From positions 31,351 through 95,350 of IMG/VR virus record IMGVR_UViG_3300020045_001036: a stretch of 64,000 nt of DNA; one strand, written 5' to 3'. Position 1 is the stretch's first letter. Each line of letters begins with the position of its first letter. Made by a program: the position numbers and the translations under genes. The notes under the pieces were generated by a model. The model had not been told where the DNA came from. It was given only the letters and a program-made list of their open reading frames with translations, and made no database searches. Origin of the DNA: a virus. Of this stretch, positions 94 through 47,100 are shown piece after piece.

Positions 94-167
94 TCCTCTC
101 TAGCTCAATTGGTTAGAGCTCCGCACTGTTAATGCGGAGGTTCCTGGTTCGAGCCCAGGGAGAGGAG
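94..167 (+). tRNA. tRNA-Asn(GTT)
   Basis: Acceptor TCCTCTC/GAGAGGA, anticodon arm CCGCA-CTGTTAA-TGCGG, T loop TTCGAGC. Confidence 0.95.
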
Positions 168-178
168 CAATAAAAACT

Positions 179-250
179 GGGGGAAACGATAGTTCGAACC
201 TATCTGGGGCCACAATAGTGTGGTTCTATCGTCTAGGGGATAGGACGCCC
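179..250 (+). ncRNA. Circularly permuted tRNA-like module without an anticodon loop
   Basis: Order is T arm GATAG-TTCGAAC-CTATC (188-204), acceptor stem TGGGGCCACA/TGTGGTTCTA closed by ATAG loop (205-228), then D arm GTC-TAGGGGATAG-GAC (231-246); GGG/CCC closes the ends. Confidence 0.7.
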
Positions 251-260
251 TAAAATTACA

Positions 261-383
261 AATACAAGGTAGTTATAACTAAGTTACTTCAACTTTAGCT
301 CATAGAGCAAATAACTTTTAATTATTCGGAACCAGTTAAATCTGGTATTTTGCAAACACCTTAGTTAGCATTCTCCTTGTATT
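261..383 (+). ncRNA. Structured repeat RNA copy 2 with embedded degenerate tRNA-Lys(TTT)-like body
   Basis: Outer stem AATACAAGG/CCTTGTATT, inner stem TAACTAAG/CTTAGTTA, AGTTACTTCAA at 282-292; loop has TAGCTCATAGAGCA, AATAA-CTTTTAA-TTATT and ACCAG-TTAAAT-CTGGT. Confidence 0.7.
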
Positions 384-411
384 ATTATTTCTTTATGTGA
401 ATTATATGTTG

Positions 412-419
412 TACCTTTG
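412..419 (+). promoter_or_regulatory. Bacteroidota primary-sigma -7 element TAnnTTTG (TACCTTTG) inside a hairpin
   Basis: Matches TAnnTTTG about 20 nt upstream of the ATG at 440; flanked by inverted repeat ATGTGAATTA...TAATTCACAT (395-436). Confidence 0.55.
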
Positions 420-439
420 TACATATTAATTCACATGTT

Positions 440-904
440 ATGAACACAGAACAATTTATACCTTGGTTTACAGGGTTATTTGAAGGAGAAGGATCCTTCT
501 ACATTACAAAAGGTATAGCAAAAGGCTTATCCTTGACATCTACAGATTTAGATGTGTTAGAGAGAATACAAGAGCATTTAGGTGGCAATATCTGTGCAAG
601 TACAACAAAGAGAGAGCATTGGAAACAAGCCTATATTTGGACTATACACGGTATAAATGCTAAAAGGGTTGTAGAAAATATGCAACCATACCTTTTAAAT
701 AGAAGATTAAATAGATCCCAGGAATGGATATCTTTATATGATGCTAATGTAGAAATACAAGCAACTAAGAAATTAGAACAAGAACAAAAAATTCAACAAA
801 TTTTAATTTTAAGTGAAACAGGTTTAACACATTCTCAAATAGCTTCACAAATGGGTTATGAAAGAAGTAGTGTAACTAAGATCATTAACAAGATTAGACC
901 TTAG
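440..904 (+). CDS. LAGLIDADG-family homing endonuclease with C-terminal HTH
   Basis: N-terminal WFTGLFEGEGSF motif; C-terminal GLTHSQIASQMGYERSSVTKI helix-turn-helix. Confidence 0.8.
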   Translation: MNTEQFIPWFTGLFEGEGSFYITKGIAKGLSLTSTDLDVLERIQEHLGGNICASTTKREHWKQAYIWTIHGINAKRVVENMQPYLLNRRLNRSQEWISLYDANVEIQATKKLEQEQKIQQILILSETGLTHSQIASQMGYERSSVTKIINKIRP

Positions 905-933
905 TCTCACCTTTCACACTAATCTTTATTATT

Positions 934-1119
934 ATGAGCAGAACTTTAAGAAGATCAAAAAAAGATAATAAAATATATCCAGAAGGACAATTTCCTAAAG
1001 TCTTTAGATATGTATGTAGATGTTCTTATTGTACAGGAGTAGATAAACAGACTCTAGTTAATAAGATTCAAAAAAAAGAGTTAAAACAATTAATAAACTA
1101 CAATGCAACATGGATTTAA
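934..1119 (+). CDS. Small basic hypothetical protein (CRCSYC)
   Basis: ORF track; AT-rich leader. Confidence 0.55.
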   Translation: MSRTLRRSKKDNKIYPEGQFPKVFRYVCRCSYCTGVDKQTLVNKIQKKELKQLINYNATWI

Positions 1120-1214
1120 ATAAATATCTAGTATTAGGAATATTAGGTTTAAATATTGCATTATATCTTTATATCTATATCGTAGATATAAAGAAAAATA
1201 AGATAACACAATAG
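1110..1214 (+). CDS. Possible 34-aa membrane peptide
   Basis: Manual translation MDLNKYLVLGILGLNIALYLYIYIVDIKKNKITQ; start overlaps the end of the preceding ORF. Confidence 0.35.
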   Translation: MDLNKYLVLGILGLNIALYLYIYIVDIKKNKITQ

Positions 1215-1288
1215 TAATGAGAAAGTTACTTCAACAAAATCTGTAACATTTTATAAAACCAACTTTCTTAAATGTTCTTTGTGTTTAT
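1203..1288 (+). ncRNA. Structured repeat RNA copy 3 with Tyr(GTA)-like anticodon stem-loop
   Basis: Outer stem AACACAA/TTGTGTT, inner stem TGAGAAAGTT/AACTTTCTTA, AGTTACTTCAA at 1224-1234, loop hairpin AAAAT-CTGTAAC-ATTTT (1236-1252). Confidence 0.7.
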
Positions 1289-1362
1289 GGCCCTTTAGCT
1301 CAGCTTGGTAGAGCAGTTGACTCATAATCAAAAGGTCTCAGGTTCAAATCCTGGAGGGGCCA
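1289..1362 (+). tRNA. tRNA with CAT anticodon, probably Ile2 (lysidine) rather than Met
   Basis: GGCCCTT/AGGGGCC-type acceptor typical of Ile2, loop CTCATAA, T loop TTCAAAT. Confidence 0.85.
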
Positions 1363-1393
1363 CAACTAATTAATTAACTAAACAATTAAAATC

Positions 1394-1537
1394 ATGCCTA
1401 AAGTAAAAATAAAACAACAGACTCCACAAGAACGCGCTGATGCGTTCCATAATTGGATGCAAAATAAAGTCAAATCTGTACATCTAGCTGATAATGCTAA
1501 AATGTCGGAAGCTTATGTAAAAGTATATAAAGCATAG
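1394..1537 (+). CDS. 47-aa hypothetical protein
   Basis: Manual translation MPKVKIKQQTPQERADAFHNWMQNKVKSVHLADNAKMSEAYVKVYKA; A-rich leader; followed by a hairpin at about 1536-1563. Confidence 0.55.
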   Translation: MPKVKIKQQTPQERADAFHNWMQNKVKSVHLADNAKMSEAYVKVYKA

Positions 1538-1642
1538 CCCTATACTTGATGGCTATAGGGTTTAAGTAAGCACATACATTCAGATAACATTACACACTAA
1601 GAACAATTGAATGTTCATTCTGACGTATGTGCTTTAAAATAT

Positions 1643-1713
1643 AGGATATAGTTATAAGTAAGTTACTTCAAAAACGCTATTTTTAAAAAAAACTTACTTA
1701 GCTTTCTTATCCT
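1643..1713 (+). ncRNA. Structured repeat RNA copy 4 (Y RNA/YrlA-like)
   Basis: Outer stem AGGATA/TATCCT, internal loop TAGTTA / GCTTTCT, perfect inner stem TAAGTAAGTT/AACTTACTTA, AGTTACTTCAA at 1661-1671. Confidence 0.7.
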
Positions 1714-1837
1714 TAAACTTAATGAGAGAACCGTGATATGCACCTTTAGGTAGTATAGAGCAAACGTCATACTCATTACAATACTAGTCCATACGGGTAG
1801 ATGGTTAACTTGCTAATACCATGCAAGCTAGTAAAAT

Positions 1838-1908
1838 TGGGATATGGTGTAATGGTAACACAACTGTTTTTGGTGCAGTCTTTCAAGGTTCGAGTCCTTG
1901 TATCCCTA
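1838..1908 (+). tRNA. tRNA-Gln(TTG)
   Basis: TGGGATA/TATCCCT acceptor, ACTGT-TTTTGGT-GCAGT anticodon arm, TTCGAGT T loop. Confidence 0.9.
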
Positions 1909-2092
1909 CTACTCTGTTTACACCTTTGTCATACAAAGTGGGGAGCCATGCCCAGAACACTGGTGAGTTTTGTATGTTATGTAGAAATTTAAACATTCAG
2001 GTCTTAGTTACTTGCAAATAACTAAGATAACAGTTAAGAAGTATATATCAGTATGTGCGAGTACACAGAACTATAGAGAGCTTAACTTTAAT

Positions 2093-2174
2093 GGCTATGT
2101 GGCGGAATTGGTAGACGCACTAGATTTAGGATCTAGCACCGTAAGGTTTGTGGGTTCGAGTCCCACCTAGGCCA
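2093..2174 (+). tRNA. tRNA-Leu(TAG)
   Basis: D arm GCGGAATTGGTAGACGC, CTAGA-TTTAGGA-TCTAG, long variable arm, TTCGAGT; two acceptor-stem mismatches. Confidence 0.88.
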
Positions 2175-2299
2175 CAGCAGTTACTTGATTCTCGTATAGT
2201 ACAGTAACAATTATCAGGATATGAGATGTCCATGGATAGTCCTTTAGTGATGTGGAATTCCATCCTAACATGCCTGAGTAGGAAAGCTTAGGCACCAAT

Positions 2300-2370
2300 G
2301 CGTGGGTGATGTAATGGTAACATGGTGGTCTCCAAAACCATTCTTAGAGGTTCGAGTCCTTTCCTGCGCG
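2300..2370 (+). tRNA. tRNA-Trp(CCA)
   Basis: GTGGT-CTCCAAA-ACCAT anticodon arm, TTCGAGT T loop. Confidence 0.92.
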
Positions 2371-2487
2371 CAAAGAGATAGTATATTTAAGTATATAGTA
2401 ACTAGTATAACTGTTAGAGTAATTAATAATGTATGCGAAATAGTTATTCAATTCTGAAAGCAATTTCTCTTTTTAAATGAAAAGTAT

Positions 2488-2649
2488 ATGGGATACAAAG
2501 ATGAAAATACAAAGCACAGAGTAGGAGTGTTAACACCTAAAAAAGGTTTTAAATGTCCTAAATGTGGCGATGATAAAATTAAAGTTAAAGCTACACTTGT
2601 AGTATGTCCTTCTTGTAAGAAGATAGTAGACGGTAAATATTTAAAATAA
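2488..2649 (+). CDS. 53-aa zinc-ribbon protein
   Basis: Manual translation MGYKDENTKHRVGVLTPKKGFKCPKCGDDKIKVKATLVVCPSCKKIVDGKYLK with two CxxC. Confidence 0.65.
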   Translation: MGYKDENTKHRVGVLTPKKGFKCPKCGDDKIKVKATLVVCPSCKKIVDGKYLK

Positions 2650-2716
2650 AGATTAAGGGTCTTGTAATGTATACACATCTAAGATTGTCACTTATCCATG
2701 TGGGTATCTTTATTAT

Positions 2717-2789
2717 GGTCCTGTAGCTCAGTTGGTAGAGCACCTGCCTGAAGAGCGGGGTGTCAGAAGTTCGAGTCTTCTTGGGACCA
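2717..2789 (+). tRNA. tRNA-Phe(GAA)
   Basis: GGTCCTG/TGGGACC acceptor, CCTGC-CTGAAGA-GCGGG. Confidence 0.93.
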
Positions 2790-2850
2790 CAAATGTGATT
2801 AAACTTTTTCTATGGGGTCACAAAGAGATATATCTCTACATAGAAGCAAT

Positions 2851-2922
2851 GGCCTATTCGTCTATTGGTTAGGACCCCAGGTTTTCAGCCTGGTAAGAAC
2901 AGTTCGACTCTGTTATAGGCTA
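2851..2922 (+). tRNA. tRNA-Glu(TTC)
   Basis: GGCCTAT/ATAGGCT acceptor, CCAGG-TTTTCAG-CCTGG. Confidence 0.93.
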
Positions 2923-2927
2923 CAAAT

Positions 2928-3001
2928 CGTGAGGTAGAGCAGATGGTTAGCTTGCTGGGCTCATAACCCAGAGGTCGGTGGTTCGAATCCACCCCTCGCA
3001 A
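2928..3001 (+). tRNA. Initiator tRNA-fMet(CAT)
   Basis: C1:A72 mismatch and three G-C pairs in CTGGG-CTCATAA-CCCAG. Confidence 0.93.
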
Positions 3002-3057
3002 CTAAAGTGGAGTATACGTGTAGTAACCACAAGATTGATATCATCTACTACACTCTA

Positions 3058-3136
3058 GGGTTTATGGCAGAGCGGTCGAATGCGGCAGACTGTAAATCTG
3101 TTATCCCACACCGTGGTTCGAATCCACGTGGACCCA
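3058..3136 (+). tRNA. tRNA-Tyr(GTA)
   Basis: GGGTTTA/TGGACCC acceptor, GCAGA-CTGTAAA-TCTGT, TTCGAAT. Confidence 0.9.
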
Positions 3137-3184
3137 CAACAAGTCCCTCTAGACATGGATTGTTAAGTTTGTTATTAGTTAATT

Positions 3185-12525: not shown

Positions 12526-12945
12526 ATGAGAGTTATTAAAGTATATTCAACAGTAGGTGCATCAGGAGAAGTTGTAACAAATGTAGAAACATTAAGAGAA
12601 TTGAAGCCAATTCTAACAAGTAAAGGTATTGATATTACTGGTATGAAACTAGTGGTAGGGGAAACAAGAAATGAGTTATCTATTGATGAAGCAGTTCTTC
12701 CAACGGGGGATTTCAAATTATATTTGATGCCTCAAAAGACTAAATCTGGTAGCCTTGAGGATCAAGTAGAAGAAGTTGAAAGTATTGTGTATAGAATTGA
12801 AGGTAAGTTAGATACTGTTTTATCTATATTACAAAAAGGAGTAGGAGCTTCTAGCAGCCCATCTTTAAAAGTTCTAAGAAGTGCAGAAGATGAAGCAGCT
12901 ATGAGAGATATGGCAGCATTATCTGGTGAAAACAGAGAATGGTAA
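12526..12945 (+). CDS. Ubiquitin-like (beta-grasp) protein precursor with C-terminal extension
   Basis: Residues 1-75 follow a beta-beta-alpha-beta-beta-beta pattern (RVIKVY..., TLRELKPIL, MKLVVG, FKLYLMP) ending KTKSG75; context of E2/JAB/E1 genes. Confidence 0.65.
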   Translation: MRVIKVYSTVGASGEVVTNVETLRELKPILTSKGIDITGMKLVVGETRNELSIDEAVLPTGDFKLYLMPQKTKSGSLEDQVEEVESIVYRIEGKLDTVLSILQKGVGASSSPSLKVLRSAEDEAAMRDMAALSGENREW

Positions 12946-12953
12946 TAATAACT

Positions 12954-12995
12954 AAGAGAGAGGCTATCCATTAGGGTGGTCTCTTTCTTTTTTTT
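12954..12995 (+). terminator. Intrinsic terminator between the Ubl and E2-like genes
   Basis: AAGAGAGAGGCTATCC-ATTA-GGGTGGTCTCTTTCTT followed by a T run. Confidence 0.8.
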
Positions 12996-13004
12996 AACTA
13001 CAAC

Positions 13005-14207
13005 ATGAATATAGAAATATTAGAAAGAAAGTTAAGAACTGGGTCTAGATCTAGAGATTTTCAATGGTATAGAAAATTGTTTGTAAAAGATCGATTGTAT
13101 ATAGGAGCTGATCCTATGACTGCGGCAGTTTTTGAACATTTTAGACTAGCAGTAAAAACTGTAGAAGAAATATACCCGGGAGCTTGGGATATAGAATTTG
13201 GTGTGGATAGTTATCAATACCTAGATAATAAAGTTATAATAAATCTTAGAGGTATAAATATAAAATTTCCAGAAGTTACAATAAGAAATTCTGTAAGAAA
13301 AAGTCATTTAATTAAAGATCTATTTATATTGACTAGATTTAGAATCTATGATAATAAATTAAGAATAGAAGGTGTGTATGGTACCAGAACTACTTTAACC
13401 TATGCAGAATATAATAGTAGATACCTACATAGTCACCTAAATAAAAATAGAATAGATCCTTCGTATGAACATTTTTATTTCCAAAAATTCTGTACAGGAT
13501 CTGGTTCTATTAATATTGCTATGGCGGATTTGAATGCCCAAGGATTTAATGCTGAAAGATTTATAAGTTATCTTTTAAATTTAGATACATTAGCTTCATG
13601 GGAATCTTTAGAGGGAGTACCTTATGTAAAGATAGCTAGTATTAATTCTTTAGAAGAAGGTACACAAATGTATAACTCAGCTAGAAGTGATGTTGCAAAA
13701 ATGTTTATTACTGCTTTAAAAAGATTTGCAACTAGTGTTTATAAACCGGAAATTGATTTTATGTTAGAACACTCTGGAGTATCTCTTGCAGATAATGATA
13801 GGTATAAAGAATTTTTACACAGAGTGCCTTTAACAGACACAGATAAGAAATACTTATTATGCTTTAAGAGTGAAGAGGGTGTATATTACTCTTATGGACA
13901 AACTCCAAGAGCTGCACCATTACTTTTATATCCTAATAAATATCTATTTCAAGGAGAAGAAATAGAAATTAAAATAACAAATCCTCCAGAAAATGCAACT
14001 ACTGAAATACAGTATGAGTTTCATCCAAAAATTAAATTAGAAATTAAAAAACAATTAGAATATGCAGCCAATAAAGCAATCCTTAGAAAGACTACAGTTG
14101 ACAGATACAAAAATTCAACTAGTGATATCAGAGAGAATCCTCAACCAGATCCAGTACCTGTGCCAACAGATAGCGAAAGTGGAGTGGAGTGGGATATTGT
14201 ATTATAG
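13005..14207 (+). CDS. Putative prokaryotic E2/UBC-like conjugating enzyme
   Basis: YLHSHL...QKFCTG (HxH/HPN-like motif followed by Cys), then helix and WESLEGVPY; sits between Ubl and JAB genes. Confidence 0.55.
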   Translation: MNIEILERKLRTGSRSRDFQWYRKLFVKDRLYIGADPMTAAVFEHFRLAVKTVEEIYPGAWDIEFGVDSYQYLDNKVIINLRGINIKFPEVTIRNSVRKSHLIKDLFILTRFRIYDNKLRIEGVYGTRTTLTYAEYNSRYLHSHLNKNRIDPSYEHFYFQKFCTGSGSINIAMADLNAQGFNAERFISYLLNLDTLASWESLEGVPYVKIASINSLEEGTQMYNSARSDVAKMFITALKRFATSVYKPEIDFMLEHSGVSLADNDRYKEFLHRVPLTDTDKKYLLCFKSEEGVYYSYGQTPRAAPLLLYPNKYLFQGEEIEIKITNPPENATTEIQYEFHPKIKLEIKKQLEYAANKAILRKTTVDRYKNSTSDIRENPQPDPVPVPTDSESGVEWDIVL

Positions 14208-15276
14208 TATAAATGGGTCAATTAAAGATCCTGGTGCTATGATATTAACAGTAGAAGATATTCTACCAATGAATAAAGGTACACAAGCTTACACAGAATA
14301 TAATTTAGATGAAAGAGTTATCGATTATATGATGGATAATGAAACTATGGAAAAAGGTTGGAAAATGGGGCACATACATAGCCATAATACCATGGGAGTA
14401 TTCTTTAGTGGTACAGATTGGTCTGAACTAGAAGATAATGCACCACATCATAATTTCTATTTATCTCTTATTGTAAACAACTTTATGGACTTTTGTGCTA
14501 AAGTATGTTTCATATCTGAAGTAAAAGGTACTAAAGATTTTGAGTTCATGGCTAAAGATGAGGAAGGTAATGAATATGTGTATATGGCCAAACCTTATGA
14601 AGTTAAACAAAAGAAACTAATAGTATTTGACTGTGATATTAAATCACCAGTATCAGCTATAGCAATAGAAGAAAGTTTCAGAACTAAAGTAACAGGTATT
14701 ATTACAGATGCAGAAAAGAAAGCTGCAGCACTTGTAGCAGCTAGAGCTGCTAATCCATCTACTACATCTTATGCTGGATGGGATGGAGGACAAAGAGGTG
14801 TTATTCAAGACCCTAAGAAACATATGGGTAAAGTTATTCCAATGACTCCTGCACATGGCTCAGAGATTAAAAGATGGACACAAGCAGATTTTAGTTCTTC
14901 TGTAAAAACATCTGTGGGAGATGCACAAGATTTAGAAGATACAATAGAAGATTTTGCTCAACATATACTATTATTAGGTAAAGATTTGGAAACTTTTGTA
15001 GACTTAGAAGATGTATGTGAACATTATGCTAAATATAAAGTGTCCCATGATTTTGTAGCGGGAGAAGTTGTAAAACAATATTTTGAGTTGTATAGTAGTT
15101 TCTTTAAAGATTCTAAAGAAGAAGATGAGATGACTGCATTTATAGTTAACACTGAACTAGTAATAGATGAGTATAGACATGAAGTTAAAATGGCAGATTC
15201 TGACGATGTATCCGGATTACTTACTAAAGTAGCTGATAGTTTAGATATTATGCTATCTGCATTTAAAACAATTTAG
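14062..15276 (+). CDS. JAB/MPN+ metallo-isopeptidase with long C-terminal extension
   Basis: EWSG catalytic Glu and HIHSHNTMGVFFSGTD = HxH-x7-S-xx-D JAMM motif. Confidence 0.88.
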   Translation: MQPIKQSLERLQLTDTKIQLVISERILNQIQYLCQQIAKVEWSGILYYSINGSIKDPGAMILTVEDILPMNKGTQAYTEYNLDERVIDYMMDNETMEKGWKMGHIHSHNTMGVFFSGTDWSELEDNAPHHNFYLSLIVNNFMDFCAKVCFISEVKGTKDFEFMAKDEEGNEYVYMAKPYEVKQKKLIVFDCDIKSPVSAIAIEESFRTKVTGIITDAEKKAAALVAARAANPSTTSYAGWDGGQRGVIQDPKKHMGKVIPMTPAHGSEIKRWTQADFSSSVKTSVGDAQDLEDTIEDFAQHILLLGKDLETFVDLEDVCEHYAKYKVSHDFVAGEVVKQYFELYSSFFKDSKEEDEMTAFIVNTELVIDEYRHEVKMADSDDVSGLLTKVADSLDIMLSAFKTI

Positions 15277-15277
15277 T

Positions 15278-15391
15278 ATGAAATGTGAACATTGTAAAAA
15301 AGAAAAAGAGACAGTAGAAACAAGACCTACCAGAAATGGAGATTGTAACTATTGTGAAGAATGTTATGAGGTACAAATATTAATGAGTTAA
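15278..15391 (+). CDS. 37-aa zinc-finger microprotein
   Basis: Manual translation MKCEHCKKEKETVETRPTRNGDCNYCEECYEVQILMS; fills the gap between JAB and E1 genes. Confidence 0.6.
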   Translation: MKCEHCKKEKETVETRPTRNGDCNYCEECYEVQILMS

Positions 15392-15394
15392 AAT

Positions 15395-16120
15395 ATGAAT
15401 TTAGAACAAGCAGGTAGATTTAAAGATGCACCATGGTTCCCTCTAGATGAGGTAAATGTAATTGTAGGTGGTGTAGGTGGTATAGGTTCATGGTTAACAT
15501 TAATGTTATCTAGAGCCGGATTTATACCAATGGTGTATGATTTTGACACATTTGAGATACATAATATGTCAGGTCAGTTAGTACCGGAAAGATTAATAGG
15601 TACAATTAAAGTAGATGCAGTAGCAGAAGTAGTAAAAGAATTTACTGGAACTACGATACATACCTTCAATGAGAAGTATACAGCTGAGTCAATGTCTCAT
15701 CACTATGTATTCTCTGGGTTTGATAATATGCAAGCTAGAAAGGATATGTTTAAAGCTTGGTGTGATTATGTAGTAGATTGGCAAGCTGAAGGGCATAAAG
15801 CTAAAATGTTAGACACTACATATCTTCAAGACATACCAATCTTTATAGATGGTAGACTCTTAATGGAGCAAATGCAGATATTCTGTGTTACTCCAGATAG
15901 AATTGAAGACTATAAGAAACATTTGTTTGATGATGCTGAGGTAGCAGAAGCTCCTTGTACATTGAAACAAACATCACATTCAGCAGCTATGATAGCTTCT
16001 CATATGGTAGGCTTCTTTACTAACCACATGACTAATGTATATGCTAAGGATGTGATTAGAAATGTTCCATTTCAATGGGAATACTTTATTCCTCTTGATT
16101 TAATAACAGTAGAAGAATGA
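15395..16120 (+). CDS. ThiF/E1-like adenylating enzyme
   Basis: VGGVGGIGS, YDFDTFEIHNMSGQ, K..AV, FDNMQAR, FIDGR motifs and candidate catalytic Cys in EAPCTLK. Confidence 0.9.
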   Translation: MNLEQAGRFKDAPWFPLDEVNVIVGGVGGIGSWLTLMLSRAGFIPMVYDFDTFEIHNMSGQLVPERLIGTIKVDAVAEVVKEFTGTTIHTFNEKYTAESMSHHYVFSGFDNMQARKDMFKAWCDYVVDWQAEGHKAKMLDTTYLQDIPIFIDGRLLMEQMQIFCVTPDRIEDYKKHLFDDAEVAEAPCTLKQTSHSAAMIASHMVGFFTNHMTNVYAKDVIRNVPFQWEYFIPLDLITVEE

Positions 16121-16797
16121 CAGCATCACAAATAATTTACATTCCAGATCTTTCCAGTTATGTATATACCAACTCTACTTACTTAACTCATTTTAGAGGT
16201 TCTAAAACAGGAACCTCTGATTGTAACTTTTATGTGCCACTACATGCTATAATGGCACATGAATTACTTACATTTGATGTTGGTATTAGAGTGATGGAAT
16301 ATAAAACTTGTAGTATACCTATAGACTATCAAAGGTCATGTTTTAGTAGATATGATGCATTTTTAAGTATACTACTAAATGGTACTTATGCAGGAAGTTT
16401 TAAGTACTCTGTAGCAGGAGAGATCTGCTATGTTATAGTACAAAGAGGTATTATTTTAAATACTGAAGGAGAGATTCTTATGTGCTTAGCACTAGATAGG
16501 GATTATGTGATGAATACAGATACAAATACAATTAGGAATAACCCTGATGCAAAGAAAGGTGCTGTATTTATTAGTAATGACTATGTAAACAATCCTAAAT
16601 ATAAGAATTTAAAAAAGAAAATAGACGCAATATATGTAGCTGAATGTTTAGCTTTAGGTATGGATGTTATCCAAACTGAGAAGATAGATAAATGGCTATA
16701 TAAGAACAACTTTAGTGCAATGAAATTTAAAACAGTTGCTGCACAGCAAAAGTTTTTAAAAGAAGATGTGCCTAAAGAAATGATAAAAGAATTATAA
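16117..16797 (+). CDS. Hypothetical protein coupled to the E1 gene
   Basis: ATGA overlap with the E1 stop codon. Confidence 0.7.
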   Translation: MTASQIIYIPDLSSYVYTNSTYLTHFRGSKTGTSDCNFYVPLHAIMAHELLTFDVGIRVMEYKTCSIPIDYQRSCFSRYDAFLSILLNGTYAGSFKYSVAGEICYVIVQRGIILNTEGEILMCLALDRDYVMNTDTNTIRNNPDAKKGAVFISNDYVNNPKYKNLKKKIDAIYVAECLALGMDVIQTEKIDKWLYKNNFSAMKFKTVAAQQKFLKEDVPKEMIKEL

Positions 16798-35158: not shown

Positions 35159-38100
35159 TTATTTACACTTCTTAATCTCAGGCAATCTAAATTCCTGTGC
35201 GCTATAACTATCCGGCCCACCAGAACTAAAATTAAATCCTCCTATAGATATTGTAGCAGCTACTACAGTTTTAGGTTTCATTTTAATAGTTTGAGTATTC
35301 TCATCTATAGTCTTAATATCAACTAAATCAGTAGGAGTAACTCCTTGTTGTTTGGCTAAAACACCTAAATGAGCTAGTATATCTTGCATGTATAGATACT
35401 CAGCAGAACCTCCTAACCTCTTTTTAGAAGGAGTAATAGTAAACTCAGTACCATTATCTAACATAACTAACAACCTTTTAGAATTATCTTCAGAATAATT
35501 ACCAGAAGTTTTAAGATTAGTTATACTTGTTTTAGGAGTTAACTTATCTAATTCTTCTTCTATTTTATCATCACCTTTTTTCAAAGTCTCCATAGGATTC
35601 TTACTAGATGCCTCTATATGTTCCGGCTTAGTATAATCTAATAATTCATATACGGAATTGACTACTTCATCTGAATAAGTAGAACCTGTTATAGTTCTAA
35701 GTAAACTAGCAATGATATTTTTAAAGTGCTCAAACATAGACTTACCGTTATAAGTAGCACTATCTAAAGACTCTTTAAATGAATCAGATACAAATGCACC
35801 TGCTACAAACTCATATATATCTTTAGTATAGTAATTTTCACCAGTTATCTCATTGTAAGGTAATGTAGCTTGAGCTACAGTAAATAATTTAGATAGTCTA
35901 GTTATAAATGCTGGGGCATCTTCATTAGGTGTATACACACTTCCCAATTTAGTTCCAAATTTATCTAGCTGTGAAATGGTCATACTGTGTACTAACTCTT
36001 CCATTACAACTTCTTCTAAGATATCCATAGTATTTTCAGGGTGTGTTTGAGTTAATTTATCTATGATAGATGGGCTGATAAAAATAGTATTACTAGATTT
36101 TTCATATACGCCGGTATTCAATACATTACCATTAATAATTTTATCCTCAATAGATATTTTAGTACTGTTATCTATGAAAGGAGCTAACTTCTGAGCAAAT
36201 TCTTTATATCTAGCATTAGGAGAAGCATTGAATTGTTCTAATACTGAAACTACACCATCACTTGTATCTAAGGCTTCTTCAACGTTAACACCTGTAATTT
36301 GTTTACTTATAGGTTGTTCTTGTACTATATCTCTACCTACACTAGGATACATTAAAGATTTTTGATTGATACTATCAGGATTGTACTCATTGAATCCAAA
36401 AGATCCAAGTACCGGTATTCTAACATATCTATTACCTACCTTTTGATATAATCTATAACCTTTAGTAGATTTCTCTATAGAGTTATCCTCAATAGTTACA
36501 AAAGCATCTGTTACACCTTCCATAGCAAATTCCTCTAAGTTTTGGAAGAACGTATGAGGTTCTTCTATTTTAGCCTCAGGATTAGTCATTTTAAAAGTAG
36601 ACAATTTAGATTTTCTACTAATAGGTCTAGCTTCCTGTGGATTATGTTGGAAGAATTGAGTAGTAAAATTAGATACTTGTTGGCTTAATGAACCTAAATC
36701 CTTAGTTACATCTCTCATATTTTTGGATACTCCGATAGCTTCTAAATATTTCACATTAATGAAATCTCTAAATCCTACTGCACCACTTTCATTATTAGCT
36801 AGATAAGCATATGATGCCAAGTCTTGTGCTAATTTTCTAGGTGTCATAACTTCACCATTAAACTCACCTAATATAGTACTATTATCTTGTAGTAACTCTA
36901 AGTAAGCATTATACTCATCTGTTCTATCAAAGTTAGTATTAGTACCAGAGATATGTTTAATTATAGAAGGAGCTCCTATAATACTTATACCATCAAATCC
37001 TAAGTTTTTGATTAACTCGTTGTTCTCCAATAAAGGATGATTACCACTCTCTATTGTTTCTTTTAAGTATTTAGCTAAAGAAGTATTATTAGGAGTATCA
37101 AAGAATAATCTCTGTCTCTCCTGATTAATATCCCCTTGGAAGATTCCTAAAGATGGTATAGAGTACATAAAATCTTTTAATGCATCTTTAATTTGGTATC
37201 TTAATTCTAGCTTTCTTTTCTTACCTATGTTTTCACCTTTAAGAGCTAACACATTTTCTATACTCTCATCTATAATAGATTGTTTGTATGGAAATAGTGG
37301 GTCCATAATACTTTCTGCAGAAGATAAAGCTTGAACTAACATAGTTCCTTCAGTAGTAGTAGGTTTAATATAATAGTCACCTATCAATGTATACCCACCT
37401 TTATCTTCAGGTACTAAACCAGTCTCTGGATCTATAAAGGTATCTACATGTATAAAATCCCCTACTAAGTCTCTAACATTAGATATACTCTCTTCTTCAC
37501 CCATTTCATTTAAGGTCTGAATTCTATCTAATACATTAAAGTAAGATATACCTAATCCAGATGTAGATAGATTTAACATTCCAGTATATTTAGTAAGTAA
37601 CTTAGCTTCCTTATCTATTTCAAAGAACTTTTGTAATACAGCTAACTGTATATCTGATTCAGCAGACTCTTTGACCAAATTAGTATATAGAGCATCTCCA
37701 GTCATTTTCTTAGAAGCTGAAGCATATAGTTTATCATCTAAGAATTTTAAACCATCTATATTACCTTCACCATCTCTTTTAATCTCATGTTTATCTATAT
37801 TAAATTCCTCAATCAGTTGATTCAAAATAGCTTTTTCTTTATTTGCAGTAAAGTCAGAAGTAAGTGATTTAGATTGTTCTTGTAACTCTACATATCTTCT
37901 TAAGATAGGTTGAGCAATAAACAATGAAGGTACTTGCACTTCTGTTAACTTACTACTATTAGGTATAGTGAACTTAGCTTGGTCAAATCCTCTGAAAGTT
38001 AACTGAATAAGAACATTCATAGTATATGGATTCTCATTCCTTTTACCCATAATCTGAGCTTTGATGTTATCTGTAGCAGAGTTTTGATTCTCTGTATGCA

Positions 38101-41100
38101 CATCTCCAACAGATCTAGCTCCATCTAAGGTGCTAACTGCACCTAAAATTCCATTAGATACTAAATCTCCTATTACTAATTCTGAATTTCTATATTCAGA
38201 CATAAATACTGTCCTACCTTGACCTATCATCTGGCCGGCACTATTTGTTTTAAAAGCTTTAATAGGCTCTTTCTTTTTAAGAATCAAAGGTTTAGCTAAT
38301 CTTTCCATTTGAGCTTGTGCTGTTACTGCATTGGAGTGACCTCCAATACCAGTTTTACCATCAGCACCTAACTTCATTTGTTCTCTCTGATACTCATCTG
38401 TATAAGTAGAGAAGTTTGATTCATCTTTACTAGAGTTAACTTTATTATTAATTAAATTAGCTGTATCAGATGCTACATCAAAAGATAAAATCTTATTAAC
38501 TTTCTTTTGTACTTCTACACTAGGAGATTGATAAACTGACTTGTAAATATCAATCATAGCATTCTCCAATACTTTAGCCTTATCTTTAGATCTAGCTTTT
38601 TCATTGTATAATTGCTTAATAATTTTACCATCTTTATCTACTACATAGTTAGATTTGTATAATGTTCTTTTATCAACATCATAATCCTCTCCTAACTGAA
38701 CTGTTTGTTCTTTAGGTACCACAAGCATATCCCCAGAAGCTTCAGGTAAGAATCCTACAACTTTTAAAATAGCTCCAGACTGATGAGAAGAAGTTGGAAT
38801 CCTAAATGAGAAATTAGATAACAATGCATCTTCAATCATTTCTTTGTTAAGGATCAATCTACCATCAACCATATTAGAATAAGGTGCTTTAGTTAAATCT
38901 ATTAACTTAGTTTTACCATCTTTAGTAACTCTAAATTTAGATTGAATCAATACTTCAGCTTCTTTTAATTTACCATCTACTGTAGTAGCTTTTAAATCTC
39001 CTGTATGATTAGGATCAACCCAAACTACACCAGATTTAATACTAGTATCTACATCATCCATATTAGTAACTCTACTAAATCCTTCAGAAGATGCTGATAT
39101 ATGTTGGTTACCCGGTAACTTAATTTTAATTAGTCTAGTAGTTATAATAGATTGTAGTAAAGATTCAAACTTGTTACTACTATTAGATAACCAGATAGGT
39201 AGTAAGAATTCAGCTTCTGCTTGGTCTTTAACTAAACCTAAATTGTCCATAACAGCTTCTGGATATTGCCCACTAGCAGTTTCTTTTAATAATAACTCAT
39301 GTACTTTTTTAATAGTCTCACTTCTATCTATAGGTAAACCATTGGTCCCTATTCCTAACTCATCCATTAAGCTTTGTTTCTGTATGTCAAAGTACATTTT
39401 CTCAGCATGGAATTTGATCTGATCAAGATCTTTACCTGAAACCATTCCGTTACTAGGTATAATAGGTTTATCTCCTACTAACATATTTATGTGTGCTATT
39501 AAAGCTTGATCAAATATATTAGGAAATACTTTCTCAGATATCTTATTGATACCATTACCTAGTATAATCTTCCACATTTGAGATCCCATTGTAGTAGAAT
39601 CATCTTTACCAGCTTTAAGATTCTTAGCAGTCTTGTATGGAGTATCTTGTTGTATTCTAAAGTTATCTCTATCTAGTTCTAAGAAAGAGTTACCTAAATT
39701 ACCTTTCATTACTTCATCAAATGTACTGTGATATAAATCATCAACAGTCAACTTAGTATCTATAGCTCCTACTTTATTAGCAGTTTGATAAGATAATCTA
39801 ACATTTTTACCATGTAAACTTTGTAAGTTTTCCATGTGTTGTCTAATCTTATCTAATTGGAAATCTCTAGTTAATTGTGGTAACAATGGAAAACTAGATG
39901 ATTTGATATATACAATTCTATTTACATTAGGTTTACCGGTATTATCATTAAACATATTATTACCAGAGTAAACTGGTTTAATAGGATTCATTACTACTGA
40001 TAGTTCATCTTGATTTAAATCTTCACCTCTCTCTAATTTCTTGTAAGCAGATTGTAAGATATTTTGATCTTTTTCTGTAAGTCTACCTTGTCTAAACAAT
40101 ACATCTACATGTTCTTTCCAAGTAGTATATTCTTGAGCATCTGTCCCTTCTATAGAGAAGTAACCACTAATATCAGGATTACTTTGAGCTAACTCTTTAA
40201 GTACAGCATCCATATCATCTTTAACATTTGATATAGCTTTCTTAGTAGCTTCACTTGTACTAGCTCCTTTATATAATTGCTCTAATATGTCTTCTAAATT
40301 CTCTAAAGTTTGAAGTGATCTTTCTTTAGATTCTGATACAGTACCATAATATTGTTTAATTAACTCCCTAGCAGTACTAGTCATTTTAACTGAGTCATTC
40401 AAGAAAATTTGTAAATACTTATCTCCTTTAGAATTGGCTAACTTACTACCCGGTGCAATCAACATTGCCATCCTTTTAGTGATAGACTCCCCAGTCATTT
40501 TAACTAACTTCAAGAAATCAACTTTTTTAGTGGCTTTGTTAGTAGCTTTACCTATAGATGGTGCATATAATGCCATATCTCCAGCAACTAATTGATAAGT
40601 CATATGTTGGTTCAAAAACTGATTTACAACAAAGTCATAAGCAGCTATTTGAGCTAAAGCATCGTTAGATATTTTAGTATTATTACCTCTCTTTCTAGCT
40701 AAATATTGTCCATCAAAATATTTAATTTGAGTTTCTTGACCAGATTTAATTAAGAAACCAGCTTCATACCAACTACCTTTACCTTCAGCTATATTAACTT
40801 TACTTTTAACATTTGCTTCCAAAGTTTCCTTAACTACACTTCTAGCTTGATTTAACACTTCAGCTTTAACAACTTCTACAGCTGCAGGACTATGAGCAGC
40901 TTCTTGCATTGCAGTAAAGATATCCTTACCCTTAAAAGTTATATTATTTAACTTAGGTATAGATAAAAATCTTTTAGCAGCTCCATCATAATTTTTAATA
41001 TTAGTAGGGTTGTTAAATGTACTAATGATTCTATCAAACTCTGAACCAAATACTTGATCAGTAACAAAATCATTAACATCTTCTCCTAACACTACAGCAC

Positions 41101-44100
41101 TACCATTAATAGTATAATTACTGTAATCAGTATCTACTAATGCAGTAGTATATAATATCATTTGTTCTTTATCAGATAAAGAAGGATTAAACATTTGACC
41201 CATTCTAAATTGTAATGAAGAACCTGGTAATTGTTGACCTATTTCTTTTTGTGTATTCTGAAAGAATGCATATTGAGTTAACATATGATCTGTAGTAGTA
41301 AGTTTATTTACTTTTTTATCTCCAGAATCTTTTTGTTTCATTTTCTTAATAGCTTGTAAGGATACAAAACCTATATCAAAATTCTTTCTAAACTTGTCTC
41401 CTACTTCACCTTCAAGACCTAAGAAGTTTAATATGTAGTTATTAGCAGAATAAGGTATTTGTTTTAAATCTTGGAATAATTGAGAAGTAGGATCTTTTAA
41501 TCCTTCCTTAATTTCATATACCATCATCTTTTGGATAGCTCCTTGTATAGATTTACCAGCAGTTCTAAATGACTTAGCCACTTTAGTACCATTAATTTCT
41601 ATTTCTTTTTGAATCAAACTATTGATTACTCCTTTAGCATCAGTATAAGGATTGTTATCCTCTAATAATACTTCAGAATCTTTATTATTATTTAAAGCAT
41701 TTCTAATATCCACTTTAAATAGATATAGTATACCTGTCTTATCTTTATATAAACCATTCTTTTGTTCATCTAAAATTCTAGATAGTGTACTATCAGAAAT
41801 TCTAACTCCTATTCTTTCCATTATAGGTTTTACTGTATCTAAGTTAGCAGAGGATAACTGTGGTATAGAACTTAATCCTTCTATATCAGCTAGTAATTTC
41901 TCCATTGCAGGTTTATCATACACTCTTTGATCTTTAATAGATTTCATTAAAGAAGAGTTACTAAAGTTAGCATTCCATTCTAATTTCATTTTAACTTCAG
42001 AAGCTGAACTATTAGGATTAATTACTTTTAAAGAGAAAGCTCCTTCTTTCTGATTTACTGTAACCATATACATATCTAATTTAGATTGTATCATTTTGTA
42101 TAATAACTCATTCTGAATATCTGTAGGAGCAGTTCTAACTTTTCTTAATACATCACCATATATTGGTAAAAACTGTTTAGTTTCTAATACATCTAATAAA
42201 GATTGTTTATCAGAAGCTAATCCAACCATAACTTCAGTTAAAGACTGTATTACAGTATCTACTGATTCATAGTCTGGCAAATAAGAAAAGTTTCTAGCTG
42301 TCTTATTAGATACAGGATCCTTTTTCATTACACCAGCAAAAAATACTTTCAAGTTACTTGAGAAACTTAGTTTAACATCTTTTTCCAAAGCTGTAGCACT
42401 AAAATCATTTTCTGTTTCCCCAGTATCATTAATATCTTCTAATGTAGTTTCTTCTGTAATATCTTCACTTAAGAAAGCTTGTATTTTTCTAACTAAATCT
42501 CCTTTATTACCTACTTCAGTACTGGTTAACTTATCTTGTTGTTTTAAAACAGATTCTAATCTCTTAGCTTGGTTGTTTAAATTATCAATAAGAGGTTGAG
42601 CTGAAACTCCGGAAGTCTCTATTTGAGATACGAAAGCTTTCAACCTATCAATCTCAGGTTGTAGTAAATCATTAGGAGCATTCTTAACTTTATCTAAAAT
42701 GTCTTGAACATTAATAGTTCCTTTCTTTAAAGATATACTAGCCAATACTTCATTAAACATAGAATTAACTAACTGCTTTTGTTGTAACACAGTAAGACCA
42801 ATCATTTGATTATTCTTAAGTCCTTCAATAGCGTTAACTTCAGCAGTACCTAACTCTCTTCTAGAAAAAGTTACATCATCATTAAAATCTTCAATTCTAA
42901 ATTCAGACATTCTATCTCTTAAATCTTGAGGTAAAGAGTTAATAGCTTCTTGTATAGACACTTTTTCTTTAGTAGGTATAGTAGCTTCTACTACAGGAAC
43001 TTCTCTGATCTCTTGATCAAGTTCTTTAGCTGTAGCTTCAGTAGCTAATTTAGCAGGTTCTACTTGAGTAGCTTCTACAGGTCTTTCAATTTCTACATTG
43101 GCACCAGCTGATTTATAGTAAACCATTGGTTGTATATCAGTAATCCATTTAGTATTACCTTCAGCATTTTTAATGGGGAAGGATTTGATATTACTTTTTA
43201 CATTATCTTTAATGAAATCATCATATGTATTACCAGTTCCCTTAGCATTTTTATACTCTAATACAGAACCTGTTTCTGTTATTTTATGGAAAGGTATGTG
43301 TTTACCTAGATGTTCCACACTAGCATTGAAAGAAGATTTTCTAAAATTACCTGTAGCTCCTCCAAAATTTTCATCAAATACTTTAAAAGCCATAGCTACA
43401 GCTCTATCAGACATTGATTTATAATTAAATCCTTGTAAAGCATCATACTTAGGATTTTTAGGATTTCTAGGAACAGGGTTACCATCTTTATTAGCAATTT
43501 TAATAATTCCTGAAGCTTCTACTGTAATATAATTTACCCCTACAGGATATTTTAAATTAACAGAATCCTTCTTAGTCTCAATACTTTCTAAGTTAGATAT
43601 AAACTGATCATTCTTGAAATCTACTCTAGCAAATAAATTTATGTAATTTTGAATAGAGTGTTCTATATCTATACCAGTAGACTCCATCACTGATTTTTGT
43701 ATAGCTCTAGCTTTAACTAAATCCATACTTCTAGCTTCTAATTGAGACAATACGTCTGGTCTAGTAGCGTGGTTTAGAGTTATACCGGCTAAAATAGCAA
43801 ACTTAGTGTTATAATAAGCTGTATCATTAATCATTTCACCATTAACTACATTATTAGTAAGTACAGGCAAAGCAATATGTTCTCCTGTATTAACCTTTCT
43901 AACTTCATATAGTTGGCCAGGATTAAAATCTTTTTGATTTACAAACTTCAAATTAGTTTGATCAGTTCTACCTGCTCTTAAATTACTAACTCCTGTAGCT
44001 ATAGCTAAGTTAGTATCTCCAGTAGCCTCACTTAAAACTAAAGGTTGATTATTTTCTTTAAGGGTATTAATTCTAAATACTTGACCAAACTTTCTTTCTT

Positions 44101-47100
44101 CAATTTCTATTGTATTATTACCTGCTAAGATTTGACCTCTTATGTTTTGAGTTTGCATCTTACCAGATTTAATGTTGGCCATTTGATCTGCTGTATCAAT
44201 ACCAGACATATTCTTAGTATTATACCAATCAGTATCATGTATTAAGAAAATACCTTTACCTTCTACACTAGCTACCATAGGTACCTTATTATTATATTTC
44301 AAAGAACCTGGAGTAGCATTATTTCTTTTTGCCCAATCTCCAAAAGACATAGTCTCTTTAACCAAAACATTCTCATCATTTAAAGTCCATTGAGATACAG
44401 GGTGTGAATCCACATTCTCCGGTACTTTAACTTCTAATTTCAAACCTACTTTAGTAAAAGTAGGATCTAGTACTAAATGATTATCTATTGTAGTTGATTC
44501 ATTAAGTTGAGCCAATACCGGTACATTAACTTCACCGTTCTCTGTTTGTACAGTAGTATACTCCATCCCTAAGAATGCAGCTTTAGGTGTAGCTATAGAG
44601 GTTTTACTTTTACTTGTATTAGTACCATCTTTGACTATAGGTTGATTGTTAATATCAAATGTAGCAATCTTAGAAGATTCAATAATAGCAGGAACTACAG
44701 TATTAGTAGTATCCTCCACGAATTCTTCTGTATCAAAAAACATACCTGCCATATCTAAAAAGTTTTCTCTGGCACTCAAATATTTATTATATACTTCCTG
44801 TGCATTAGAAACATCTCTACCAGATAACTCCCAACCTAACTTATATACTTCAAAAGCTTCATCTACTTTTTTCATAGAGGATCTTTCGATAAGATCTTTA
44901 ACTACATCATCAAATGTAGGGGTCTTACTTAATTCTCTTTCTAAGAAATCAGCATAAGTATTTGTAGTACTTATCATTTGTTGCTTTTTAGCATTTGAGA
45001 TATTCTTATCTATCTCTCTAGGAGAGAAAGCTTGTTCGTCAAATCCCCCTTGTGAGAAGTTGAATCCTCCTATTGATATCATACCACTAGCTTCAGGAGT
45101 CATTTCTTTAGATCCCTCTATAACTTCAGGGATATTAACCTCGGGCATTGTTACATTATTAGGTGTAAACTCTGGTACTACATCTGCTAATATTACTTGT
45201 GTTTCTAATTGATTTTTCTTTTCAGCTAATCCTGCAATAGTAGGAGTAGATTGTTCTACTCTAACTTCTCCTGTAGTAGTATTAGTTACTTCTACAATAG
45301 GGATGCCATCTACATTTTTAACCTCTACAGACTCTTCTTCAGTAGCTTCTACTAGATCTCTAGTTAAAGCATCTGCATCTTCTATAGTTCTTATAGCTTG
45401 AGGTTGGGCATCTATAGCTTCTTCTTGAGCTTTTTTTAATTTTGCTTTAATAGCAGATAAATTCTTTCTATTAGTTTGATAAGCTAATTCTTCAGTATTT
45501 TTAATAGCATGCTCATTAGTAATAGCTAAACCGGCTTGTAATTCAACTAATCTATCTAAATCTTCTCCAACAATAGAATTAACTACTGTAGGTATTTCTT
45601 TATTAGGTCCTTCTTCAGTTACATAAGGAATAGTTTCTACTAGTTGCGTATTTAGTATATTGTGTACATCAAAACTCTCAGGTACATGCCCTTGTTCTTT
45701 TAATTTAGCTACTTTATCACTAATACTTTTTTGAGTCTTAGTTATAGCTTCCTTATAATGTTTATTATCTAAACTATGTACTTGATCATTAGTAGCTAAC
45801 CTTTGAATAGTTTCATAGTTAGGTCTTTCTTTATACCTAAATTCTACATCTCTCATATTAGGAATGGTAGTAGCTAATGCTTCTTGAGCATTAGTTACAG
45901 TATCTTCATGTAATCCTCCATTCTTAGTCATTCTCTTCATAGCCAATTCAAATTCATCTAATGAATTTGTTCTTAAAGCTTGAGCAGCTAAATTTTGGAA
46001 TGCCATACTTTCTAACATCTTAGCTTCAGTTTCTTTACCTTTATTTCTAAGGTCAGCTACTTTACCTTCATATTGTGGCACACTATATAAAGTATTACCA
46101 GCTCTCATTGTAATAGAATCAGCTAATTCTTTATCAGTAGTATTTTTATCTAGCTTACCATAGAAATCACCTAAGTCTTCCATAGATTTTTTTTGTGCAT
46201 CATAGGCTTCTCTGTAATCAGAACTAGCTTTATAATTTACTTTATGTTGTGCTGCAGCTAGTGCAGCAGGTATACCTCCCATCAATATGGTAGATGCTGC
46301 TATTTGTGCATAGAAGTTAGGATCTTTAAATTGTTCTAATTGTTGATAATAATCTTTAATATTATATTCACCTTTTTCTGCATTGTAAGTAGGTACTACA
46401 CCAGTAACTAGCTCCTCCATAAATTCTTCGGGAACACTTTGAAATACTTCATTGAAATTAGTATGATACCCTAAAGCAGAAGTAATTTTACCCACTTTAG
46501 TTGTAGAGATACTAGGAGTTACTTTATTTAAAACTTTACCTACACCATTAACAAATGTTTCAGCATTGGTTCCAGCAATGGCTTTTTTAAGACTATGCCC
46601 AGTTTTACCAGCTAAAGGACCTACCCACATCTCAGAAGCTATTTCTTTAGCAGATTCTGTTGCAGCGTATATAGCAGCATTACTTTTAGTAATATCTTCA
46701 CTTACTTTATGTGTCTCTGGATCGTATATCCTAGACATACTATCAAAGATTTGATTCAACTGTGTTTGTAACTCTGCAGCTTCTTTAGAATTTCCTTGCC
46801 CTGCTTTTTGCAGTCTATTTAATTTCTCTGTAACTACCGCAGTGGCATTCATAGATTGTTTCTCAAAAGCTTCTTTTTGAGGTTTAGATGTAAGTATAAC
46901 TTCTCTTCCTTCTGCATCCTGTGTTACTACCATAGGGCTAGTAAATTTTTGTGCATATTGATTATAAGTGAAAGGTGTCATGGCAACCTGTGCTCCTAAA
47001 TCTATAGCACCTACTGCTGTTTTAACACCTATGTTCTTTATAGTGTTAGCAGCTCCTACATTAAAAGCTTCTAAAGCTAATGCTTTAGCTCCTTTAGTGA

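Follow-up and report, generated by a model that had tools for sequence, protein, structure and literature searches.

This study concerns a stretch of 64,000 nucleotides, here called the window (positions 31,351 to 95,350 of IMG/VR virus record IMGVR_UViG_3300020045_001036), which forms the final 64 kb of a complete virus record of 95,350 bp with direct terminal repeats. Between positions 12,526 and 16,120 it carries a gene cassette encoding the precursor of a ubiquitin-like protein (Ubl), a protein resembling ubiquitin-conjugating enzymes (E2), a JAB/JAMM metallopeptidase and a minimal ThiF-type activating enzyme (E1) (Table 1). A first, sequence-only reading had described five contiguous open reading frames (ORFs) here, including a small zinc-finger-like ORF, and had proposed that they form a ubiquitination-like pathway. 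All five ORFs, with the motifs claimed for them, were recovered where that reading had placed them.

Table 1. Features of the cassette and of the ORF that follows it, in window coordinates.
Feature	Position	Strand	Length (aa)	Characteristics and basis
Ubl precursor	12526..12945	+	139	AlphaFold beta-grasp; K71-T-K-S-G75
Terminator-like hairpin and T-run	12954..12999	+		Consensus scan, RNAfold
E2-like protein	13005..14207	+	400	UBC/UEV-fold model; H142-S-H144, F162-C163-T-G165
JAB/JAMM metallopeptidase	14062..15276	+	404	Full JAMM motif
CxxC...CxxC micro-ORF	15278..15391	+	37	Zn-finger-like, phage-specific
Minimal ThiF-type E1	15395..16120	+	241	Pfam ThiF; Cys188
Conserved downstream ORF	16117..16797	+	226	Iterated hidden Markov model (HMM) across related loci

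Predicted folds and catalytic residues of the four proteins

The sequence-only reading had called a beta-grasp Ubl, a UBC-fold protein with a conserved Cys, a JAMM peptidase and a ThiF/E1 enzyme, and each of these calls was supported by the models and searches described below. Residues 1-70 of the Ubl precursor were modelled by AlphaFold, using a 35-sequence alignment, in a beta-beta-alpha-beta-beta topology with a predicted local distance difference test (pLDDT) score of ~95. In a Foldseek search the model matched NEDD8 and ubiquitin with template modelling (TM) scores of 0.66-0.70 (root mean square deviation, rmsd, 2.6-2.9 A over ~75 columns; prob 1.0). The best fold matches were ubiquitin, NEDD8 and UBX, with no ThiS or MoaD chain among the matches listed, and by fold model and Foldseek match the ORF at 12526 encodes a ubiquitin-type beta-grasp protein. 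The Ubl had no counterpart in Pfam, NCBIfam or PADLOC, PHROGs returned unknown-function families only, and a PDB profile search with the Ubl alignment gave chance-level matches only.

The Ubl alignment contained ~78 conserved residues that close in the motif K-x-K-[S/A]-G, which was kept in all 36 of the Ubl homologues listed; the conserved C-terminal Gly characteristic of Ubl modifiers is thus present. Beyond this Gly the homologues carry tails that vary in length (1 to ~290 residues) and in content. In four lineages (L030, L057, L058 and L096) the Ubl ends one residue past the Gly, and many of the long tails have a YGKNYTNLS-like motif in common. This motif is absent from the tail in the window, which is 64 amino acids long (residues 76-139), helical and acidic. 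The protein Atlas offered no usable lead for the tail of an FpV4-like homologue. Taken together, a conserved fold, a conserved terminal Gly and a dispensable cap are the features expected of a modifier that matures by proteolysis, and the mature protein is predicted to comprise residues 1-75 (nt 12526-12750), the tail being removed by cleavage.

Ubiquitin-ribosomal protein fusions provide a precedent for a ubiquitin fold used as a cleavable N-terminal tag. The beta-grasp domain might likewise serve only as a chaperone or solubility tag from which the JAB peptidase frees the tail, the ThiF and UBC-fold proteins having nothing to do with this process. Such a role would agree with the long tails of most homologues, with the motif that many of them share, and with the lambda-type pairs of a TAPI Ubl and a JAB protein, which act without E1 or E2 (PMC1779556). 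The tails are, however, replaceable and poorly conserved, whereas the beta-grasp domain, the terminal Gly and the putative catalytic residues of the E1 and E2-like proteins are conserved. Since the four tail-less lineages retain the whole cassette, processing as the sole function is considered highly improbable.

The JAB protein consists of a catalytic domain (~residues 1-200) followed by a helical C-terminal domain. Residues E41, H106-S-H108, S116 and D119, which make up the full JAMM motif (E...HxHx7Sx2D), were invariant in 35 sequences, and the motif could be aligned with that of an archaeal Rpn11-like JAMM protein. The PADLOC JAB model matched the ORF at 14062 at 5e-5, and the Pfam Prok-JAB model reached only 13.5 bits against its gathering score of 25. 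As the motif is intact, this shortfall is attributed to a family that has diverged too far for the model.

The JAB gene begins within the E2-like gene, in the +1 frame, and the overlap of 146 nt (14062-14207, plus strand) encodes the catalytic Glu41 of the peptidase; the C-terminus of the E2-like protein within the overlap is disordered and unconserved. In all five of the overlapping related loci that were checked, the overlap was likewise long and JAB lay in the +1 frame. A programmed frameshift fusing the E2-like and JAB proteins was considered, but the conservation of the JAB N-terminus from its own start codon speaks against it. In the Flavobacterium phages Fpv1, Fpv2, Fpv20 and FpV21 (KU599877/NC_031931/NC_031912 and others) the JAB match falls into two pieces separated by ~1 kb, and an endonuclease is annotated in the interval; this arrangement looks like a mobile intron or homing-endonuclease insertion. 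The gene is uninterrupted in FpV4 and Fpv3.

Three regions can be distinguished in the model of the E2-like protein (pLDDT 80), namely a UBC/UEV-fold core (~35-210), a C-terminal domain without an assigned fold (~210-370) and a disordered terminus. The core is built of a helix (40-56), four long antiparallel strands (61-132), a loop carrying the motifs H142-S-H144 and F162-C163-x-G165, and two helices after that loop (168-179 and 183-198), an order of secondary-structure elements that agrees with the UBC fold. When the core was compared with 48,161 chains by VIA-align, nearly all of the top 50 matches were UBC, UEV or RWD folds (Tsg101 UEV, Z 5.9; UBE2S, 5.6; BubB, 4.8; Cap2 E2 domain, 4.5). 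In a second VIA-align comparison, 14 of the 14 top rows were Tsg101 UEV or UBE2S (best Z 6.3, 128 residues, rmsd 3.7 A). The core is accordingly assigned to the UBC fold, with individual Z values that are middling; the assignment is credible because the list of matches is uniform and covers the whole domain (~35-210).

The catalytic Cys of E2 enzymes is located in the loop that joins strand 4 to helix 2, and the canonical E2 motif is HPN-x8-C. In the model of the cassette protein, H144 (nt 13434-13436) and C163 (nt 13491-13493) both lie in the strand 4-helix 2 loop with a His-to-Cys spacing of 19 residues, and the argument for a catalytic pair is positional. These two residues were invariant, together with E200, S201 and P206, in 148 representatives of at most 50% identity.

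Foldseek returned no match to the E2-like model at E <= 0.001, with UEV, Cap2 and E2 chains among its weak rows. In Pfam (UQ_con, Prok-E2_A to E and others) the 35 E2-like members were unmatched at E <=0.05 save for scattered single hits; there was no match in NCBIfam or PADLOC, and PHROGs gave unknown-function families only. A PDB profile search with the E2-like alignment produced chance-level matches only, none of them an E2, and the BFVD search led only to uncharacterised crAss-like proteins. A search of 1.84 billion representatives (E <= 0.001) yielded 3,248 clusters at 50% identity, and the database relatives are unnamed. On the evidence of the structural model, the protein appears to represent a previously unrecognised E2-like family with a UBC-fold core.

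Membership of the E1 in the ThiF superfamily was evident from the Pfam model PF00899 (score 50.4 bits, threshold 28.1; E 2.2e-13). Its profile matched MccB, UBA5, SAE2, NAE1-UBA3, ThiF and MoeB in the PDB, and hhalign paired it with E. coli MoeB (prob 93.5). Residues R8, GGxGGIG, D49xD51, N57, Q61, K72, D110-N111, R115 and C188 were invariant in 33 sequences, so that the ATP/Mg site is complete with one departure, namely Gly60 in place of the Arg of the NLxRQ motif. An hhalign match to E. coli ThiF (prob 75) paired Cys188 (nt 15956-15958) with Cys184, in a terminal part of the alignment where confidence is low; Cys184 is the crossover-loop cysteine of ThiF and the residue that forms the ThiF-ThiS acyl disulfide. 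The protein consists of one adenylation domain only and lacks a Cys domain, a ubiquitin-fold domain and a Zn site. The E1 of phage crAss001 (gp76, L053:23395-24546) is larger, with 383 aa and an extra ~145-residue N-terminal domain before ThiF, and it retains the equivalent of Cys188.

These features of the E1 also bear on a sulfur-carrier role, in which the enzyme would adenylate the beta-grasp protein for conversion to a thiocarboxylate, the sulfur donor for a cofactor or for the modification of tRNA or DNA, in the style of ThiS/ThiF, MoaD/MoeB or TtuB/TtuC. The pairing of Cys188 with the acyl-disulfide residue of ThiF would suit this role; the top NCBIfam matches of the E1 were ThiF models (8e-11, far under the cut-off), and public records call the gene 'thiamine biosynthesis protein'. 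However, the complete 95,350-bp genome contained no PP-loop ATPase, rhodanese or cysteine desulfurase in searches that were positive in 13-14 of 14 control genomes, and the cassette cannot be counted as a sulfur-carrier system by its gene content. No ThiG- or MoaE-type acceptor was noticed near the cassette, where none was specifically searched for. The sequence-only reading had already argued against such a role, and its argument now extends to the whole 95-kb genome. Because sulfur genes are absent, the beta-grasp protein best matches ubiquitin, NEDD8 and UBX and not ThiS or MoaD, and a sulfur relay offers no role for the strictly linked UBC-fold protein and its putatively catalytic Cys, a sulfur-carrier function is very unlikely.

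Gene linkage, locus layout and genome setting

Forty-six related IMG/VR loci were fetched with the E1 protein, and the order Ubl, E2-like, JAB, E1 was identical in each of those with sufficient flank. A wider scan with the E1 alignment gave 275 relatives, of which 80 were kept, and a scan of prokaryote assemblies added 12 contigs of metagenome-assembled genomes (MAGs). Linkage was counted with HMMs of the four alignments in unique loci with at least 3.6 kb of upstream sequence (n=71), and all four genes occurred together in 68 of them, which places the syntenic arrangement beyond chance and bears out the co-occurrence expected by the sequence-only reading. There were three exceptions: in L063 the E2 slot is taken by a divergent ORF of 637 aa, and the other two (L064 and L065) are remote E1 matches of 27-29% identity.

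JAB and E1 each matched 74 GenBank phage records, with an equal breakdown by organism name. The cultured phages crAss001, DAC15 and FpV4 carry the cassette; in crAss001, gp79 is the Ubl, gp78 the E2-like protein, gp77 the JAB peptidase and gp76 the E1, and the adjacent gp80 is a primase. The existing annotations of these genes read 'ThiF', 'thiamine biosynthesis protein', 'metalloprotease domain' or 'hypothetical'. The entire cassette was also found at ~281-298 kb of a contig of 373,651 bp from a Puia sp. MAG (L055, DASYBV010000020.1) binned as Chitinophagaceae; this contig may represent an integrated element or a very large phage, or its assembly may be chimeric.

The fifth member of the cassette as first proposed, the 37-aa CxxC...CxxC ORF, did not share in this conservation. 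It had no counterpart in 33 related loci examined by local tblastn and was found in the window's genome only, and in the same 33 loci the JAB gene adjoins or overlaps the ThiF gene. The small ORF looks like a recent insertion, and a role as a conserved E3 or adaptor was ruled out, as no counterpart exists in the related loci. Thus the Ubl, E2-like, JAB and E1 genes of the proposed five-gene cassette were retained and the Zn-finger gene was not; the conserved core is four genes, together with the ORF downstream of the E1 (16117-16797).

The start of this downstream ORF overlaps the E1 stop codon (ATGA). In 45 of 51 sequences (50 loci and the window) the ORF following ThiF was homologous to it by iterated HMM. 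The family has no invariant residue; the Atlas gave no lead to its function and a PDB profile search one chance-level match. It may be an accessory component, an adaptor or a substrate of the cassette.

The hairpin directly 3' of the Ubl gene has a 16 bp stem and a 4-nt loop followed by a T-run (RNAfold, -23.1 kcal/mol). The gap between the Ubl gene and the enzyme genes holds a hairpin and T-run in 31 of 35 related loci, with unrelated stem sequences, which suggests that attenuation at the boundary of modifier and enzyme genes is conserved. Such conservation in position would fit a modifier that is expressed above its enzymes.

The setting in the replication arm, also proposed by the sequence-only reading, was confirmed by a DNA primase gene upstream of the cassette (PHROG 1.2e-57) and a RusA-like resolvase gene downstream. 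The closest named relatives of the virus are FpV4-like phages of Flavobacterium psychrophilum and Steigviridae crAss-like phages of Bacteroides, and no GenBank phage matched at the DNA level by megablast. The window has a G+C content of 31%, and its genes switch strand near 30 kb. At its start (94-3137, plus strand) is a cluster of nine tRNA genes (Asn, Met x2, Gln, Leu, Trp, Phe, Glu and Tyr), and its largest ORF encodes 4,320 aa on the minus strand (35159-48121).

The proposed pathway and its main alternative

The checks of fold, conservation and linkage supported the reading of the locus as a ubiquitination-like pathway, and none of them refuted it. We consider it likely that the cassette is an autonomous, phage-encoded pathway for the conjugation of a ubiquitin-like protein, and the very abundant crAss-like phages probably tag proteins with a Ubl modifier of their own.

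In the proposed pathway, the JAMM peptidase would first cut the 139-aa precursor after Gly75. The freed Gly75 carboxylate would be adenylated by the minimal E1, acting as a homodimer, and then bound as a thioester to Cys188. The Ubl would next be handed from the E1 to the UBC-fold protein, on Cys163, which in turn would pass it to a lysine of a phage or host protein, the extra C-terminal domain of this E2-like protein perhaps selecting the substrate. Reversal of the conjugates by the same JAMM peptidase would also be possible, and the hairpin past the Ubl gene may keep the modifier more abundant than the enzymes.

Several observations weigh against this pathway. The assignment of the E2-like protein comes from a predicted model with middling scores (Z 5-6.3, Foldseek E ~0.1), its top single structural match is a non-catalytic UEV domain, and the 19-residue spacing between its His and Cys differs from the HPN-x8-C of canonical E2 enzymes. 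In the E1, Gly60 replaces the Arg of the NLxRQ motif, the pairing of Cys188 with ThiF Cys184 sits at the weak end of the prob-75 alignment, and there is no ubiquitin-fold domain for E2 recruitment. Furthermore, neither an E3 nor a target could be identified.

Some of the same observations enter into the main alternative, in which the cassette acts in counter-defence or on an unconventional acceptor. The JAB peptidase would then strip host conjugates while the E1/E2-like pair sequesters or mis-charges components of host Bil systems or of type II systems for anti-phage signalling based on cyclic oligonucleotides (CBASS), or else the Ubl would be passed to an acceptor other than a protein, for instance a lipid or sugar. 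ATG3, which transfers ATG8 to a non-protein acceptor, is a precedent for the latter. The match of the E2-like core to a non-catalytic UEV, its unexplained C-terminal domain and the lack of a visible E3 or target are all compatible with this alternative, and host systems built of like parts do act against phages (PMC11601596). Pure deconjugation, however, would not need a Ubl, and the cassette encodes its own, with a strictly conserved, activatable Gly and linkage in 68 of 71 loci. Moreover, Cys163 and His144 are invariant, unlike in a pseudo-E2, and the PADLOC models of Bil, Cap2 and Cap3 gave weak, partial matches to the E1 or JAB only. Counter-defence or a non-protein acceptor is accordingly judged unlikely.

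Returning to conjugation by a phage-encoded pathway, the lineage concerned includes the Steigviridae crAss-like human gut phages and the FpV4-like Flavobacterium phages. We lean slightly towards the broader view that a large lineage of virulent Bacteroidota phages carries its own complete minimal ubiquitination system, with an unrecognised E2 family (>3,000 clusters at 50% identity) and a capped Ubl, and uses it during replication on host or phage proteins. If so, a new E2 family and a very small E1 would be added to those known, which would help to explain the spread and simplification of ubiquitin-type systems. The idea is directly testable in cultured pairs of cassette-bearing phage and host, namely crAss001/Bacteroides intestinalis, DAC15/B. 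thetaiotaomicron and FpV4/Flavobacterium psychrophilum.

Comparison with known systems

Conjugation of Ubl proteins in bacteria is known as a host weapon against phages, in Bil, type II CBASS and probably Bub systems. The sequence-only reading had set the cassette beside Bil, CBASS and PRTRC loci, and membership in these systems did not hold up; the cassette is not Bil, Bub, PRTRC or Cap2/Cap3, because its domain architecture and model scores fail to agree with theirs.

Bil (BilA Ubl, BilB E2, BilC JAB and BilD E1) has the same four parts as the cassette, with a Gly-ending Ubl and separate genes in one operon. It is, however, a host defence system, whereas the cassette is found in lytic phage genomes. 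The BilD-type E1 combines an inactive and an active adenylation domain with a Cys domain, in contrast to the single 241-aa domain of the cassette E1, in which the Cys would occupy the crossover-loop position. The PADLOC BilD model matched residues 46-128 of this E1 only (1.2e-5), and the E2-like protein was unmatched by any PADLOC model.

PRTRC and type II CBASS systems, which reside on mobile or defence loci, likewise contain E1-like and E2-like parts, to which CBASS adds a JAB part. Cap2 of CBASS is an E1-E2 fusion that acts on a CD-NTase; the cassette contains neither, and the PADLOC E1-E2 matches cover the nucleotide-binding stretch only. The PRTRC ThiF model reached 22.3 bits where 144.75 are required, and the remaining PRTRC models gave no match.

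Type I Bub (6E/DUF6527), with a BubAB Ubl-E2 fusion, a BubCD JAB-E1 fusion and BubE, resembles the cassette in its minimal UBA5/ThiF-like E1, a homodimer as proposed for the cassette E1, and the structural comparison of the E2-like core returned BubB as one of its matches (Z 4.8). The Bub JAMM peptidase matures the Ubl by cutting the pre-protein after the terminal Gly (PMC11601596), a step like the one predicted for the cassette. The Bub E1 is without a catalytic Cys and the Bub E2 uses a Ser, whereas both Cys residues are invariant in the cassette, which also has no fusions and no DUF6527/BubE protease, and in which the cap is a variable tail and not an E2.

E1 enzymes of the UBA5/UFC1 and ThiF/MoeB types share with the cassette E1 the single adenylation domain and carry a Cys in the crossover-loop position, where Cys188 would also lie, and UBA5, MccB, ThiF and MoeB were its best profile matches. 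Unlike them, the cassette E1 has no Zn-binding CxxC pairs and carries Gly60 for the Arg of NLxRQ, and its partner belongs to a new UBC-fold family and is neither UFC1 nor a sulfur acceptor.

No description of the cassette was found in the searchable literature, which leaves most subscription papers outside it, and a prior description is possible; the nearest texts were a 2026 preprint with a one-sentence mention of a gut-phage family resembling UBA5 (bioRxiv 10.64898/2026.03.05.709809) and a survey of prokaryotic Ubl systems from 2006 (PMC1779556). The only phage precedent found is the TAPI-JAB pair of phages lambda and T1, in which TAPI is a Gly-terminated beta-grasp protein with a C-terminal extension, accompanied by the JAB-NlpC/P60 protein TAPK (PMC1779556). 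TAPI and TAPK are encoded among the tail genes without E1 or E2, whereas the cassette lies in a replication block and includes both enzymes. If the proposed pathway is correct, the cassette would be the first viral machinery for Ubl conjugation in the prokaryotic world and a mirror image of the Bil and CBASS defences, and the fixation of a complete Ubl/E2/JAB/E1 set in lytic phages that form a large and ecologically dominant group would show that this chemistry also serves the phages' own ends.

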